Source: a virus (lineage: Duplodnaviria > Heunggongvirae > Uroviricota > Caudoviricetes). Taken from it: a stretch of DNA of 25,968 nt. The DNA lies in IMG/VR virus record IMGVR_UViG_2541047695_000005, positions 1-25,968 of that record, one strand, 5' to 3'. This document shows, one piece after another, positions 14,109-23,986 of the stretch. The notes beneath the pieces were generated by a model that was given only the letters and a program-made list of their open reading frames with translations, did no database searches and was not told where the DNA came from. The position numbers and the translations under genes are program-made. Every line of letters begins with the position of its first letter. Position 1 is the first letter of the stretch.

Positions 14109-14555
14109 GGAGTTTACTCACATCTGACAAAATCAATATAAACAGCCCCTCCGGAGAGGGGCTGGAGAGTGGCGCTATGTGCCATTGCATGGTGCCGGGT
14201 GCCTCCCGGTGAATTCAGTACCAGCACCTGAATCCGCGATTATCCCATATACCTACTCGCTGATTGCCCCTCCGCACAGGGGGATTCACCATGCCAGTTT
14301 CTTTTAACAAACTCCCCGCAAACCAGACAACAGTCAACCGCCTGAATTGTGAAGTATTTAAAAATTTCTCCCGCTAACTGATACCCGGCTAACAGTCTGG
14401 CGTTTTCTTTTTCAGCAACGGAAAAGCAACAACCACCACACCTGCCACCAGCACACCGTCAGCCAGCACTGACATTATCCGGCTGCTGCAATGCCATTCA
14501 CAAAAACAGTAAGCAATCACTTTTTACCGTAACAGGTGATAATCCAGATATGTAT

Positions 14556-15019: not shown

Positions 15020-15095
15020 TGGCGCGCTGTACTGGATTTGAACCAGCGACCTGGCGATTATGAGTCGCTCGCTCTCACCACTGAGCTAAAGGACC
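15020..15095 (-). tRNA. tRNA-like gene, anticodon CAT (Ile2/Met-type), acceptor stem unpaired - probable pseudo-tRNA
   Basis: The minus strand aligns arm by arm with the E. coli tRNA-Ile2 cloverleaf (D-arm GCTC-AGTGGTGA-GAGC, anticodon loop CTCATAA, T-arm GCTGG-TTCAAAT-CCAGT, encoded CCA), but the 5' acceptor GGTCCTT cannot pair with the 3' ACAGCGC. Confidence 0.5.
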
Positions 15096-18231: not shown

Positions 18232-18387
18232 TTACTCCTCAGGTTCGTAGACTGTGAAGACAGCGACCTCCGTCTGGCCGGTTCGGATTCGTACCTCGCA
18301 GAGGTCTTTCCTCGTTACCAGTGCCGTCACTATGACGGTTAAACAGATGACGATCAGGGCGATTAACATCGCCTTTTGCTGCTTCAT
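18232..18387 (-). CDS. hok: Hok/Gef family type I toxin
   Basis: In-frame ATG at residue 20 of the track ORF gives MKQQKAMLIALIVICLTVIVTALVTRKDLCEVRIRTGQTEVAVFTVYEPEE (51 aa), near-identical to E. coli HokD as I recall it. Confidence 0.85.
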   Translation of the reverse strand: MKQQKAMLIALIVICLTVIVTALVTRKDLCEVRIRTGQTEVAVFTVYEPEE

Positions 18388-18444
18388 AGCCTGCTTCTCC
18401 TTGCCTTTCGGCACGTAAGAGGCTAACCTAGATTTGCCGTTCAT
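18232..18444 (-). CDS. mok: mok-like N-terminally extended frame (70 codons) overlapping hok
   Basis: The same frame extended upstream by 19 codons; 70 codons equals the classical mok length in hok/mok/sok loci. Confidence 0.5.
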   Translation of the reverse strand: MNGKSRLASYVPKGKEKQAMKQQKAMLIALIVICLTVIVTALVTRKDLCEVRIRTGQTEVAVFTVYEPEE

Positions 18445-18500
18445 AGATTGAGCCTCAGATTAATGTTAAGCGTCTTGCAGGACGCGTAATGTTAACTGGG
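18430..18500 (+). ncRNA. sok: putative Sok-like antisense RNA (bounds approximate)
   Basis: Plus-strand TTGCCT-17 nt-TAACCT at about 18401-18429 would start a transcript antisense to the mok start region; a GCGTC-TTGCAG-GACGC hairpin lies at about 18471-18487. Inferred from hok/sok architecture, not verified. Confidence 0.3.
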
Positions 18501-18562
18501 GCTTTTCTCTATCTGCCTTTGGTGTTCATGCCTGAGACAGATAGCCTCAAGCACCCGCAGCC

Positions 18563-19947: not shown

Positions 19948-20529
19948 TTATCTTCTTTTCAGTTCCTTGGGAAGAAAAGCATCTATTTCTTCTTCAGAAA
20001 ATGTTAAATCTTCTTTGTTTTTTAATGCGTCCTGTGCTTTTTTATAAGCTTCAAATGTTGTACTAGGAGAGCCTGAATACACTGAATGTAAACTCTCGAG
20101 TAACGAATCCCGCTCTGACTGCAATTGCTCGATTGGTTTTTCACCCATTGCTAAGTCTGTAAGCAATGATAAATACTTTTCTCGGATTAACCAGATCTCA
20201 TTTGCAGCCTGCTTATGTTTTTGCGCCAACTCACCAAGGTCATAATCTTTGGTATAAGCGTTAAGAATGAGAAGCAGTGTTGATACAACAATCCCAACCC
20301 CCGTGCCTACTTCACCCGCGCCGAAAAAAGTTGCTAGAAAGCCTCCAGTAGTTAAGGCGGAGAGAATTATTTGCCAAAACTTTATAGAAGATAGTCGAGA
20401 TAGGAGAATGTCTGAGCATTTTTCATGCGTCTTATGTGAGTAAACGACCCGACCATAACACTCTCTGATCTGCCCTTCTAAAACCCTTCTAGATTCAGGT
20501 GTATCCTTAGTCTGGAAATGTTGATCCAT
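19948..20529 (-). CDS. SLATT-like two-transmembrane-helix effector protein (putative)
   Basis: ATG at residue 20 of the track ORF with GGGAG RBS, overlapping the upstream gene by 23 nt; 193 aa with a soluble N-terminus, two adjacent TM helices (WQIILSALTTGGFLATFFGAG and GVGIVVSTLLLILNAYT) and a helical C-terminal half, the SLATT architecture. Confidence 0.55.
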   Translation of the reverse strand: MDQHFQTKDTPESRRVLEGQIRECYGRVVYSHKTHEKCSDILLSRLSSIKFWQIILSALTTGGFLATFFGAGEVGTGVGIVVSTLLLILNAYTKDYDLGELAQKHKQAANEIWLIREKYLSLLTDLAMGEKPIEQLQSERDSLLESLHSVYSGSPSTTFEAYKKAQDALKNKEDLTFSEEEIDAFLPKELKRR

Positions 20530-21388
20530 AAATCTCCCGCCATTTTTGCTTAGCCGACCATTCGCGTTTTGGGGTCGCCATTTCATGCTCTATAGCTTCG
20601 AGTGAAATGTTATAGCACCGTTTTGCTTTATATTGGAAAAGCCCTTTACCATAGACATACTGACCACTTCCTGGCGCTTTCCAATACTCCTTACTCGTAT
20701 CTTGATCAGCCATCCATTTGAAGAAATCACGACTCATGAAATCGTAGTAAAGATACGACTTATCTCTATGCGCCCAATTTTCAATGAATTGATACGCAAG
20801 CGTATCAATGAGTAAACCACTTATAGGTACATCCCATTTACGCTTCCAAGCTCTTGCCATTCTACAAAGTTGCACCAAATTGTTATTGGTAATGTTATTT
20901 CTTAACCTCATTGCAGAAATTTCTGGCTTTGGATTTGTAATCCTCCAACGGCCACCACCGTTCGCATCAGGAAATGTGTAACTATCACTAACATTGAGGA
21001 AAGCTGGAACGACTTCAAATGTAATTCCATCATTGAACGGTACAAGGATCACTTGACCGTCACCTCTAATACTAGTGGTAGCATAGGTTTTTTCAATAGA
21101 TCTCTTAACCGCTTGAAGCAATGCTGACTGCCCATTTCCTAAGTAGCTATTGTATTTTTGATACTCGGAATATGGTAGCTGAAAAATCATATCCAGATCG
21201 CTCAAGCCTTGCGTAGCTGTGTTCCGACCATATGATCCAACGTAGAGACTATGAGAAGTATCAGAACTGCTATCCCAAAAATCCGTATTTAAACGCTTCG
21301 TTATATTCCTATATCTAGTTGAAATTGTTCCACCATCTTTTACAGTAAGATTGGAGCAAAATCCGCAAAACCACTCAGCTAAACCCAT
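20507..21388 (-). CDS. cGAS/DncV-like (SMODS-type) nucleotidyltransferase (putative cyclic-oligonucleotide synthase)
   Basis: ATG at residue 3 of the track ORF with AAGGAA RBS; motif LYVGSYGRNTATQGLSDLDMIF matches the GS-x-x-R-x-T ... D-x-D nucleotidyltransferase signature of CD-NTase/SMODS enzymes; AT-rich; a perfect TATAAT lies upstream at about 21540. Confidence 0.6.
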   Translation of the reverse strand: MGLAEWFCGFCSNLTVKDGGTISTRYRNITKRLNTDFWDSSSDTSHSLYVGSYGRNTATQGLSDLDMIFQLPYSEYQKYNSYLGNGQSALLQAVKRSIEKTYATTSIRGDGQVILVPFNDGITFEVVPAFLNVSDSYTFPDANGGGRWRITNPKPEISAMRLRNNITNNNLVQLCRMARAWKRKWDVPISGLLIDTLAYQFIENWAHRDKSYLYYDFMSRDFFKWMADQDTSKEYWKAPGSGQYVYGKGLFQYKAKRCYNISLEAIEHEMATPKREWSAKQKWREIYGSTFPD

Positions 21389-21681
21389 GCTCAATTCCTT
21401 TTCTAAAATCTAATGAAAAATTCAAGGGCGCATGTTCCATGCATCATTGATAACTTTTTTCAGTCAGCTAGAGCAACATAATTGATACTAACTAGCTGTT
21501 TCTTCAAGTGAGTAACCTACTTTAGCATCAAGGTATTATACCTACCAAGCATGGGGAGAAACCACCACTTAAGCCATTGAAGTATATAGAGCAGATTTTG
21601 TTGAAAAAGCACTGTTTGTTTATACATATGAATAGTGCTTTTAACCAGCAATAGCGCGGCTCTCAGCGTTTTACAAGCAGT

Positions 21682-21955: not shown

Positions 21956-22378
21956 TCACTTCAAAAAATACCGAACATCCCCCTGATAAAACGACAATAT
22001 CCGCTGCATAACTTCGCTTTTACGACACTCAGTACAAATTATATTATGACGCCTGTCGTAACGACGTATTTCTCCATCAGGTAATGACCAGATAAGGTCC
22101 GGATCAACCGCAGATGGTTTCTTCAGCTTTGCCCTTGAGAGCTTTTTACGGGCATTTTGCCAGTCCTTACGCGCCTGTTCAGACGGGAATAACCCGTAAC
22201 CAGAGTTGTATACATCGCCACTGGCAACCAGCTCTCTGGCCAGAACGCTCATCAGATATCTTGTTGCCCCAGTTTTAGCTTCCAGTTGTCGTAACGTCTC
22301 GCGCCCACTCTGGCGTACGAGTTCAAGAACCTGCCCTTTAATTTTTTCCCGCTCTTCTTGTGTAAAAACTTTTGCCAC
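21956..22378 (-). CDS. hypothetical phage protein downstream of the replication gene
   Basis: 140-aa ORF with GTG start preceded by AGGAGGG; helix-rich basic protein; no family recognised. Confidence 0.4.
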   Translation of the reverse strand: MAKVFTQEEREKIKGQVLELVRQSGRETLRQLEAKTGATRYLMSVLARELVASGDVYNSGYGLFPSEQARKDWQNARKKLSRAKLKKPSAVDPDLIWSLPDGEIRRYDRRHNIICTECRKSEVMQRILSFYQGDVRYFLK

Positions 22379-22418
22379 AAGCCCTCCTGAAAATTACCTC
22401 ATGACCAGAAATACACAC

Positions 22419-23489
22419 TTACCCCCTGAAGCCCGGTGGAATTTCGGTATCCGGTTCAGAAATATGATTCACACAACGCTGGTTGTTCGTACCGCTTACC
22501 GGGAGCAACCAGGGGTTTTCAAAATTCCGGTCCGGTCCAAAAAACGTCGTCGCTCGCTGAACAAATTCCGTTCCCGTTTTCCCGGTAGCCGCCAGGTATC
22601 TTGCGTAACGCCTCACACCATCCAGCATGGCCTCTGGTGGCACCCCCTCGCGTAATCTGGCCTTCCAGGCACTGAAAGCGGATTTCTTCGGGTTTGCCCC
22701 AGCACGCAACGGGTATTCCCGCCAGACCTGTTCGAACACATCCGGATAATCTACTCGCCCCACAGGCTGCCCGGTGTTTTCCGGGACTACCCGATCGGCT
22801 TCCCGCTGAATGGCGGAATCGGCTTCAGGCTGCTGCAGTTGGTGTGATTGCTCCTGCCTTGCGGTCATCACCTGCTGCACAGCGCCCGAATCGGCTTTCA
22901 GCGCATACGCTGAATCGGCTTCCGGTGTCGTGCCTGCTGGCTGACCAGGATTGACGGTCTGAACATCCCCTGCCTGGTTCGTGGCGTTTTTTACGCCATG
23001 GACCATAGTGTTTTGATCTTCTTGATCTGTATCTTTATCTGTATCTTTATCTGTCGTGACTCGTCGTGACATGTGCGTGACATTTCGTGACGCGCCGTGA
23101 CAATCGCCATTTTGTTCCCGCTTTCTTTCCCTCTCTCGCTGCGCCCTCTTGCGCTCTGCAGGAGATTTTGCGGTTTGCGAAATATTGCCGTTGTCCTCTT
23201 TAAGCACCTGGCGTTTTTCCCATCCAGTGATTAAATCACCATCAAGTACCCGCCCCTGCATCGTCTGCAAAATTGAATCAATTACCTCTTCTGTCACGTC
23301 GAGCGCACTTGCCAAATCTTCTGTCGTGACATCAATGTGACCTCGCGTGACATTTCGTGACGCGCTCACCAGGAGGTGGATATACACTGCCATCACTGTT
23401 GCAATTGACTGCCCTGACACCCTGGCAATTGTTCGCCACTTAGGGTCATTTGGCATGTCATGCCATAATCTGAGCCAGGCGTTAGCCAT
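22419..23489 (-). CDS. replication initiation protein (O-like/replisome organiser) containing the origin iterons
   Basis: ATG at residue 3 of the track ORF with GAGG RBS; early-operon position after the cro and cII-like genes; the coding sequence contains two clusters of CGTGAC iterons and the acidic repeat TDKDTDKDTDQEDQ, as lambdoid O genes carry ori internally. Confidence 0.55.
   Translation of the reverse strand: MANAWLRLWHDMPNDPKWRTIARVSGQSIATVMAVYIHLLVSASRNVTRGHIDVTTEDLASALDVTEEVIDSILQTMQGRVLDGDLITGWEKRQVLKEDNGNISQTAKSPAERKRAQRERERKREQNGDCHGASRNVTHMSRRVTTDKDTDKDTDQEDQNTMVHGVKNATNQAGDVQTVNPGQPAGTTPEADSAYALKADSGAVQQVMTARQEQSHQLQQPEADSAIQREADRVVPENTGQPVGRVDYPDVFEQVWREYPLRAGANPKKSAFSAWKARLREGVPPEAMLDGVRRYARYLAATGKTGTEFVQRATTFFGPDRNFENPWLLPVSGTNNQRCVNHISEPDTEIPPGFRG
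23054..23101. repeat. iteron cluster 1 (5 x CGTGAC at about 10-11 bp spacing) with adjacent 12-bp tandem repeat ATCTTTATCTGT at about 23031-23054
   Basis: Direct repeats counted by eye at about 23055, 23065, 23076, 23086 and 23096; a 21-bp block GCGTGACATTTCGTGACGCGC recurs exactly at about 23345-23365. Confidence 0.55.
23321..23365. repeat. iteron cluster 2 (CGTGAC/TGTGAC copies plus the exact 21-bp repeat of cluster 1; inverted copy at about 23293)
   Basis: Same hexamer at helical-turn spacing inside the same gene, about 270 bp from cluster 1. Confidence 0.5.
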
Positions 23490-23560
23490 ACTCACCTCTT
23501 CTGATACCGAATCTTTTTACTCACGAGTTGCCGGAAGTGATTCGATATGGCTATTGTCAG

Positions 23561-23986
23561 TCAATGTACTGCCACAGCATTTCCTGCCGGGCCACCACGG
23601 TTCATCTGATTGAAACCGGCGATTGCCACTGCGACAAAATCATCAGCGTCTCTCACCAGTCGCTCCCGCGTCTCCACCAGCTCCCGAAAATAAGCTGAAC
23701 TGTGGCTGCGCATTCTGGCCACCAGCAAAGGTGGCATTGCCTTTTCGATCGCTGGTAACAACGCCTGAATTTTTTCAACTGCATCAGGGGTGTCTTTCTC
23801 TACCCAGCGGAAAATTTTCTGGGTATTGCGAGCCAGGGCTTCCGGATGGCTGTCGTCATACAGTTCCGGGAACGTCATTCCCAGCTCGAAATACGCTTTG
23901 GTAATTTTCGCAGCCGGTACTTTTTCGCCGTCCGGATGCGCCCAGGCATTCATCGCCATGCGGATGTGTTCATGCTTGATTTTCAT
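23561..23986 (-). CDS. CII-like/YdaT-like early regulator (putative)
   Basis: 141-aa ORF directly downstream of and 4-nt overlapping the cro-like gene, as ydaS-ydaT in Rac-type prophages; family assigned from memory and synteny. Confidence 0.45.
   Translation of the reverse strand: MKIKHEHIRMAMNAWAHPDGEKVPAAKITKAYFELGMTFPELYDDSHPEALARNTQKIFRWVEKDTPDAVEKIQALLPAIEKAMPPLLVARMRSHSSAYFRELVETRERLVRDADDFVAVAIAGFNQMNRGGPAGNAVAVH

Follow-up and report, generated by a model that had tools for sequence, protein, structure and literature searches.

A probable bipartite replication origin formed by two iteron arrays in the initiator gene of a lambdoid prophage

Organization of the locus

The window, that is, the whole 25,968-nt stretch of DNA that was analysed (Caudoviricetes record IMGVR_UViG_2541047695_000005), carries on its minus strand a replication initiator gene, rep, in which short repeats with the gene-sense core GTCACG form two separate arrays. 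Comparison among homologues indicates that the two arrays have been selected as DNA elements, share a single specificity and are not a repetitive coding linker, since synonymous sites are frozen and the cores in the two positions, here called the linker (array 1) and the loop (array 2), have switched together. The gene probably harbours the replication origin of a lambdoid prophage, and this origin would be bipartite, being split into the two iteron arrays. Coordinates are given on the + strand of the window, and the features concerned are as follows.

22419..23489, minus strand: replication initiator gene rep, 356 amino acids from the ATG at 23489
23055..23101, minus strand: array 1, presumed core origin iterons, five direct GTCACG cores, codons 130–145
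23325..23361, minus strand: array 2, presumed auxiliary iterons, four direct cores, codons 43–55
23293..23298, plus strand: inverted iteron copy, overlapping codons 64–66 (DVT), with 26 bp between it and the nearest direct core of array 2
23075..23095, no strand assigned: 21-bp repeat, copy 1, two cores and the spacer GAAAT, encoding ASRNVT
23345..23365, no strand assigned: 21-bp repeat, copy 2, in the same reading frame as copy 1 and 270 bp (90 codons) from it
23011..23054, no strand assigned: A+T-rich, purine-skewed stretch, presumed DNA-unwinding element, encoding TDKDTDKDTDQEDQ
22975..23005, no strand assigned: imperfect 13-bp palindrome with a 5-nt loop, just past the A+T-rich stretch

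The listed open reading frame of rep is longer (22419–23495, with a GTG start at 23495). Homologues start with MAN(A/S)W, and the ATG at 23489 (MANAW...) was therefore taken as the start.

The repeat arrays

An earlier note, made from the sequence of this DNA, had reported about five CGTGAC repeats at roughly one-helical-turn spacing, a second cluster of the same repeats, an exact 21-bp duplication, a 12-bp tandem repeat alongside and, at the protein level, repeated SRNVT and DKDT motifs. Exact recounting gives five copies of CGTGAC in array 1, starting at 23055, 23065, 23076, 23086 and 23096 (steps of 10, 11, 10 and 10 bp; gene nucleotides 389–434). The second cluster does recur, as array 2 (gene nucleotides 129–165), but holds only three exact copies, at 23325, 23346 and 23356, together with the one-mismatch variant TGTGAC at 23336. 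Its GTGAC cores start at 23326, 23337, 23347 and 23357 (steps of 11, 10 and 10 bp) and read in gene sense as GTCACG, GTCACG, GTCACA and GTCACG, at steps of 10, 10 and 11 bp. The inverted copy, GTCACG on the + strand and CGTGAC in gene sense, had gone unmentioned. The other items stand as described: the 21-bp block GCGTGACATTTCGTGACGCGC is present in two exact copies, the 12-bp repeat is called by Tandem Repeats Finder as 2.9 copies at 23020–23054, next to a 10-bp periodic array at 23053–23102, and ASRNVT and DKDT each occur twice in the protein.

The repeats are not a product of chance. One 310-bp span holds nine of the 17 CGTGAC sites of the whole 26-kb window, and the five identical 6-mers at 10/11-nt steps form the only chain of at least three in the window; among 300 windows simulated with a Markov-1 model, the longest chain of any 6-mer was two in 296 and three in four. 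The cores fall in all three reading frames (1, 2, 0, 2 and 0 in array 1 and 2, 0, 1 and 0 in array 2), which argues for conservation at the level of DNA rather than for a peptide repeat. As a separate observation, recombination between the in-frame copies of the 21-bp repeat would remove the helix-turn-helix, the wing and the basic helix in frame, and the product would be a protein without its DNA-binding core.

Synonymous-site conservation of array 2

The codons of array 2 specify the end of helix 1 and the loop and strand before helix 2 of the predicted winged-helix domain, and the length of the encoded loop varies among homologues. Synonymous sites were compared in 21 homologues of less than 92% nucleotide identity (median 69%). 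Within array 2, Val47 is encoded by GTC, Thr48 by ACG, Gly50 by GGT and Val54 by GTC in 21 of 21 sequences; Ala43 is GCG in 19 of 21, Ser44 is TCA and Thr55 is ACG in 20 of 21, and His51 is CAC in 20 of 20. Val65, in the inverted copy, is GTG in all 18 homologues that have valine at this position. Four codons are in use for Arg49, the third base of which is a spacer position. Conserved residues outside the array use three to six codons each, and over 23 conserved codons of fourfold or higher degeneracy the frequency of the top codon is only 0.29–0.60 (Mann–Whitney p = 1.1 × 10−4 for array 2 versus other conserved codons); mean third-position identity is 0.82 inside array 2 and 0.55 elsewhere. 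By these measures the codons of array 2 are frozen at synonymous sites, whereas the other conserved codons are saturated. The earlier note had allowed that homologues might show the repeats to be no more than the code for a repetitive linker; the homologues instead keep the repeats more strongly in DNA than in protein.

Covariation of the two arrays

Covariation was examined in 52 genes, with the motif defined as the commonest G+C-containing 6-mer of each linker. The homologue sample comprises one genome per species plus a few phages and contains related sequences, so that independent support is best counted as four core classes and not as 32 genes. The classes in which the loop matches the linker are GTCACG; GTAACG, found in loci L028, L037, L045 (GGTAACGCAGGTGTAACGCA in loop and linker), L031 and L043; (C)GAACG(C), found in L034, L036, L039–L041, L051 and a Manatee Spring phage; and GCAACG, found in Ralstonia phage Hennie with four copies each in loop and linker. 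The linker motif occurs at a density of 34 per kb in the 54–99-nt loop segment, compared with 0.56 per kb in the remaining gene, and at least two loop copies are present in 32 of the 45 genes with at least three linker copies. The spacings between motifs are almost all 10, 11, 20 or 21 bp. The pattern indicates that the loop and linker arrays share one specificity, which has been switched in concert several times.

A loop and a linker from the same gene share longer exact strings than random pairs do (permutation p = 10−4 overall, and p = 0.02 for own pairing within the GTCAC class). In most GTCAC-class genomes, however, the arrays share just ∼8–11 nt, namely the core and a few bases. The invariance of the cores can therefore not be put down to recent gene conversion, whereas the 17–21-bp identical tracts in the window and a few other sequences may have arisen in this way. 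Of the two possibilities raised by the earlier note, two binding arrays fit better than a one-off internal duplication, as the arrangement is a family trait and the cores change together. By mutual information, origin class is best predicted by the very residues that array 2 encodes. A search by the same measure for specificity residues outside the loop was set aside as confounded by the overlap of site and loop and by phylogeny.

The linker array and the adjoining A+T-rich stretch

Array 1 encodes the linker between the N- and C-domains, after the basic helix, and the presumed unwinding stretch adjoins it on the downstream side in the direction of transcription. The segment ACAGATAAAGATACAGATAAAGATACAGATCAAGAAGATCAAAACACTAT, which comes directly after array 1, is 72% A+T and 70% purine on the sense strand and has two GATC sites. 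The presumed unwinding stretch as a whole contains the 12-bp tandem repeat and GATC at 23015 and 23024. The least stable 40-mer of rep, at 23011–23050, falls here (75% A+T; dG −43.4 against a window mean of −55.2, within the top 1% of the window). The search for an A+T-rich unwinding element beside the repeats that the earlier note had advised thus places the least stable stretch of rep against array 1, as in ori-lambda. Homologues likewise have (GATAAA)n-like or purine-rich runs after the linker array. In position, orientation and composition, array 1 and the A+T-rich stretch correspond to a lambdoid origin as judged from the nucleotide sequence.

A scan for promoters and terminators inside rep gave weak consensus matches only, and on the antisense strand it scored the palindrome as a hairpin of terminator type; neither was given any weight. 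No RNA family of Rfam matches within rep.

The initiator and its neighbourhood

The rep protein matches phrog_3729, annotated as `replication initiation protein' (E = 5 × 10−257), and has no Pfam match at E ≤ 0.01, including none to Phage_rep_O. The first 130 residues align with positions 1–119 of 121 of the PF09681 (Phage_rep_org_N) profile at E = 0.0059, the score of 17 bits being below the cut-off of 23.3, and TIGR01714 matches the protein at E = 0.009; homologues are named `phage replisome organizer' by NCBI. Profile comparison with SPP1 gp38 using hhalign gave no signal, and a sequence search of solved structures gave no match. Homology to lambda O was considered and rejected, the BLASTP match (E = 0.09) being confined to the low-complexity linker, with no Phage_rep_O match.

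A model was obtained with AlphaFold from a 79-sequence alignment, numbered from the GTG (subtraction of 2 gives the ATG numbering). The predicted local distance difference test score (pLDDT) exceeds 90 for residues 1–95, over which the predicted fold comprises helix 30–46, a loop and short strand at 47–56, helices 57–64 and 68–78 and a β-hairpin at 79–88. Beyond this N-domain lie a basic helix (111–128), a region that is disordered to about residue 225 and a helical C-domain. In ATG numbering, the layout is a winged helix at residues 1–95, a basic helix at about 109–126, a disordered linker and the helical C-domain. A Foldseek search of the PDB returned only weak matches (E ≥ 0.3), nearly all of them to winged-helix regulators. 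The N-domain is confidently predicted to be a winged helix, and rep would encode a winged-helix initiator resembling the phage replisome organizers and is not a homologue of lambda O.

The last 24 codons of rep (window 22419–22490) encode a C-terminal tail, ...ISEPDTEIPPGFRG, that matches the C-terminus of DnaT (NF002770, E = 0.0014). The same DnaT-like tail recurs on homologues with otherwise different C-domains (P0032, P0039, P0041, P0049 and P0100). It may be a peptide by which the protein docks on the host primosome, and the lack of a phage helicase-loader gene downstream would be consistent with this: no P-, DnaC- or DnaB-like gene follows rep either here or in phage Tritos, the rep of which is 99% identical, and the next gene is DUF977/Ren-like. 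The order of genes on the minus strand is P22_Cro-like, YdaT/CII-like, rep and DUF977/Ren-like, with an S24 repressor gene divergently placed on the + strand.

Several further features were noted around the module. A G+C-rich hairpin followed by a T-run lies on the + strand at window 23718–23735, antisense inside the YdaT/CII-like gene; its position recalls the terminator of the lambda oop RNA, and no promoter was identified for it. Just downstream of the replication module, on the minus strand at window 19948–21394, is a defence-like cassette of two genes, the first for a SMODS nucleotidyltransferase (PF18144, E = 2 × 10−50; CBASS_cyclase_b below the cut-off) and the second for a SLATT_4 effector with two transmembrane segments (PF18186, E = 6 × 10−74). 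Rfam and ARAGORN place a sok antitoxin RNA (hok/sok), the small RNA STnc100 and a tRNA-Met at 18382–18556, 14134–14323 and 15020–15094, respectively, all on the minus strand.

Distribution among homologues

The 5′ 546 bp of rep is present in 2210 of 5426 complete Escherichia coli genomes (∼41%), including prophage Sp11 of O157:H7 Sakai, with up to four copies of the module per genome. Homologues of the N-domain at ∼60–72% amino-acid identity keep both arrays, as seen in Aeromonas phage pAEv1818, Pseudomonas phage P7869 and prophages of Bordetella, Chromobacterium, Serratia, Acidovorax, Gilvimarinus and others. Distant homologues have GTCAC at gene nucleotides 129, 139, 149 and 160 and three to five more copies near nucleotides 387–430, followed by (GATAAA)n-like runs; a linker array of three to seven copies is found in most homologues examined. 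Possession of two arrays is a trait of the family, seen in prophages of E. coli, Aeromonas, Pseudomonas, Bordetella, Ralstonia and further hosts.

The number of copies evolves as it does in iteron arrays. Core counts of four plus five are found in 76 of 80 E. coli loci from a scan of viral contigs, nearly all of which are near-identical copies and therefore informative for copy number only. In Sakai Sp11 (ECs_2206; locus L138, 1949–2992) and in E. albertii, a 21-bp insertion raises the number of GTCAC cores in array 2 by two, to six, and lengthens the loop by the seven residues TCHGVSL; L006 carries this variant. The C-domain of the Sakai variant is a DnaT DNA-binding domain (PF17948), and more generally the N-domain travels together with both arrays and is found fused to a variety of C-domains (DnaT-like PF17948 in Sakai, others elsewhere) and upstream of different helicase genes, of DnaB, primase-helicase or DnaC-like type in other hosts. 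This is as expected if the N-domain and the arrays together constitute an origin-specificity module.

Two observations on the family stand apart from these. Rep homologues from Serratia and Pantoea (L046, 2501–3688, and L054, 2501–3802) have an insert after the N-domain that resembles a T5orf172/GIY-YIG-type module (MUG113, E = 0.0036, below the cut-off); their linker has repeats of the ACTACG type, and an array in the loop is lacking. Many database entries of the rep family (P0002–P0038) are annotated as partial and lie at the ends of short contigs, one cluster comprising 1121 members, none of them on a contig longer than 683 bp, which suggests that assemblies frequently break at rep because several co-resident prophages share it.

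Comparison with known origins

Location of the iterons inside the initiator gene is the rule for lambda, P22 and L (PMC8022706), and the six 11-bp repeats in gene 18 of phage L (PMC8022706) are the closest in unit length to the 10–11 bp of the window. In lambda, four iterons occupy O codons 117–145 and are followed by a purine-rich stretch of 78% A+T; no convincing iteron copies were found in the N-terminal coding part of O. The likeness of rep to ori-lambda is in the sequence of elements along the direction of transcription (iterons in linker codons, an A+T-rich, purine-skewed stretch and then a palindrome) and in the N-domain and iterons forming an exchangeable specificity module with variable C-terminal or helicase-recruiting parts. 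The differences are that the lambda sites are 19 bp long, dyad-symmetric and ∼20–24 bp apart, whereas those of the window are asymmetric 6-bp cores in 10–11-bp head-to-tail units; that the initiator is not an O homologue and no P-like loader gene follows it; and that the window has a second conserved array within the codons of a DNA-binding domain. The earlier note had seen in rep the lambdoid arrangement of an origin inside the O gene. This is upheld for the layout, while rep resembles O by analogy only. The origin core joins the familiar kind in which iterons lie inside the initiator gene, with an initiator of a different family from lambda O. The open-access literature searched contains no description of this origin or of GTCACG iterons.

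Phage SPP1 offers a second comparison, as its oriL lies inside initiator gene 38 (PMC6316719). The gene 38 repeats are in linker codons ∼140–150, and no convincing iteron copies were found in the N-terminal coding part of this gene either. The similarities are an initiator that in the window is only tentatively of the winged-helix `replisome organizer' type of SPP1 gp38 (G38P), its PF09681 match being end to end but below the cut-off and its homology to gp38 not confirmed by profile comparison, an origin in the linker of the initiator gene and two sets of sites for one initiator. The second SPP1 set, oriR, is ∼13 kb away, intergenic and provided with its own A+T-rich element (PMC6316719), whereas array 2 is ∼230 bp from array 1, in domain-coding sequence, and has no strong A+T-rich stretch. 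A distant second origin of the SPP1 kind was looked for and rejected: there is no other chain of at least three in the window and no GTCAC cluster beyond the two arrays in the complete 46-kb genome of Tritos.

One iteron in two separated arrays that serve a single initiator is the arrangement of ori and crr in satellite phage P4, of P1 incC and incA and of R6K. In these systems the second array exerts its effect in cis through DNA looping, which is stimulatory in the case of P4 crr and inhibitory in that of handcuffing, as at P1 incA, and inverted copies are operators; the initiators are the primase-helicase α of P4 and, in iteron plasmids, Rep_3/RepA proteins with WH1 and WH2 domains. The window also has one iteron in two separated arrays, covarying over four core classes. 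The rep protein has no match of P4 α or Rep_3/RepA type in Pfam, NCBIfam or PHROG. We know of no case in which the arrays of P4, P1 or R6K are embedded in the codons of the DNA-binding domain of the initiator, as array 2 is here, and control of copy number, which is the purpose of the plasmid arrays, is unlikely to be that of a lytic burst.

Interpretation and alternatives

The mechanism that is favoured for the bipartite origin has the winged-helix domain of Rep binding each 10–11-bp unit, so that protomers would lie head to tail on one face of the helix. The complex on array 1 would nucleate beside the unwinding element, and Rep bound at array 2 would join it by protein–protein contacts with the ∼230-bp spacer looped out. 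Such looping would raise occupancy and strain, the A+T-rich stretch would open, and the variable C-domain (here with the DnaT-like tail) would then recruit the host primosome or DnaB. The protein loop encoded by array 2 would be a permissive segment, the sequence of which is largely dictated by the DNA sites.

Several points weigh against this reading. The data show selection and shared specificity and not the sign of the effect of array 2, so that a cooperative role is favoured by inference and its positive direction is a guess; an intragenic site of this kind could equally act as a roadblock or as an operator. The literature searched holds nothing on binding of Rep to these sites or on replication starting there. 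No strongly A+T-rich stretch accompanies array 2, and no DnaA box with up to one mismatch was found in 22300–23650. Lineages with a linker array alone exist (L038 with seven copies, L055 with six, L032/35/47 and L048/50), from which array 2 is taken to be accessory, origins of the family being able to function without it. A test of helical phasing between the arrays gives a Rayleigh p of 3 × 10−4, but most sequences share an ancestral gap of 227–229 bp and relatedness confounds the result. The palindrome is not conserved, being missing in the Sakai Sp11 variant, the sequence of which diverges just beyond the A+T-rich stretch, and it is therefore probably not essential.

It is possible, although on the unlikely side, that array 1 and the A+T-rich stretch are the whole origin and that the function of array 2 is negative or regulatory. 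Rep at array 2 would then stop or delay transcripts that start at the early rightward promoter, and would in this way regulate its own synthesis as well as transcription through the origin, or array 2 would pair with array 1 in a non-productive complex, as in the handcuffing of P1 or R6K-type control iterons. The position of array 2, 130–170 nt into the transcribed gene and upstream of the origin core, would suit such a site, as would the inverted copy 26 bp away with its invariant Val65 codon (GTG in 18 of 18), which recalls iteron plasmids, where inverted sites are typically operators for initiator dimers. It is also in keeping with this explanation that no strong unwinding element lies by array 2 and that some lineages do without the array. 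It is not obvious, however, what lytic phage replication would gain from a limit on copy number; the inverted copy was not found in homologues of the CGAACG class, and negative and positive effects are not distinguished by these data. A different role, as a barrier to the replication fork or helicase that makes replication unidirectional or triggers the switch from theta to rolling-circle replication, is improbable. It has a precedent in SPP1, where gp38 binds the second repeat set, oriR, and a fork stalled there has been proposed to trigger the replication switch (PMC6316719), and the direct copies of both arrays all have the same orientation; the SPP1 sites, however, are ∼13 kb apart with oriR intergenic, while here ∼230 bp separates two arrays within one gene, and the complete Tritos genome has no distant cluster.

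Two further explanations would deny array 2 a binding function or the repeats a role as DNA sites. Array 2 could be a passive echo of array 1, kept like it by gene conversion or slippage in a tolerant loop. Identical tracts between the arrays (21 bp in the window and 17–20 bp in L006, L007, L008, L022, L030, L045 and L051), the slightly greater likeness of GTCAC-class loops to their own linker and the acceptance by the loop of a seven-residue insertion made of two more cores all speak for copying, yet the ∼8–11 nt shared in most genomes of that class point to no recent conversion, and the cores are invariant at fixed codons in 21 lineages, with the 10/11-bp register kept, where synonymous divergence is saturated elsewhere. 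Copying of this kind is therefore an unlikely account of array 2. Still less credible, and indeed very improbable, is that the repeats are a by-product of a repetitive protein segment (SRNVT, DKDT) or act at the level of mRNA. The 21-bp repeat does encode ASRNVT twice in one frame, and DKDT is repeated as a peptide, but besides the distribution of cores over three frames, frozen synonymous positions contrast with variable amino acids between cores, homologues with widely different linker peptides retain a constant DNA core at a constant 10/11-bp step, the inverted copy is on the other strand and rep has no Rfam match.

Beyond the bipartite origin itself, it may be that rep keeps a working array of sites inside the codons of its own DNA-binding domain as a cis partner of the origin, either a looping enhancer or an intragenic operator. 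This is a speculative proposal and more doubtful than the regulatory explanation above. In its strongest form the iteron-encoded loop would also help to read the iterons, the class-predicting residues being those that array 2 encodes. In L038, which lacks a loop array, different codons specify a loop peptide that is still similar (…ERG…TNV…); this suggests that the iteron is not read by the loop residues.

Significance

The replication module occurs in prophages throughout the Proteobacteria and, within E. coli, in ∼41% of the complete genomes, and it provides a natural case in which the presumed binding sites of a protein overlap the code for its own DNA-binding domain. Sites and loop share the same nucleotides, so that a change of origin specificity necessarily rewrites the loop; if the cis-partner proposal is true, protein and site would be physically coupled in evolution, and, as an intragenic operator, array 2 would tie Rep synthesis and transcription through the origin to the occupancy of Rep. 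Array 2 can be recoded synonymously with the protein unchanged, and the natural core classes are ready-made specificity swaps. Since the specificities of initiator and origin appear to have switched together several times, initiator–origin diversification becomes directly testable in this family, and the arrays may be of use in annotating prophage origins and in predicting replication incompatibility or cross-activation between co-resident prophages.

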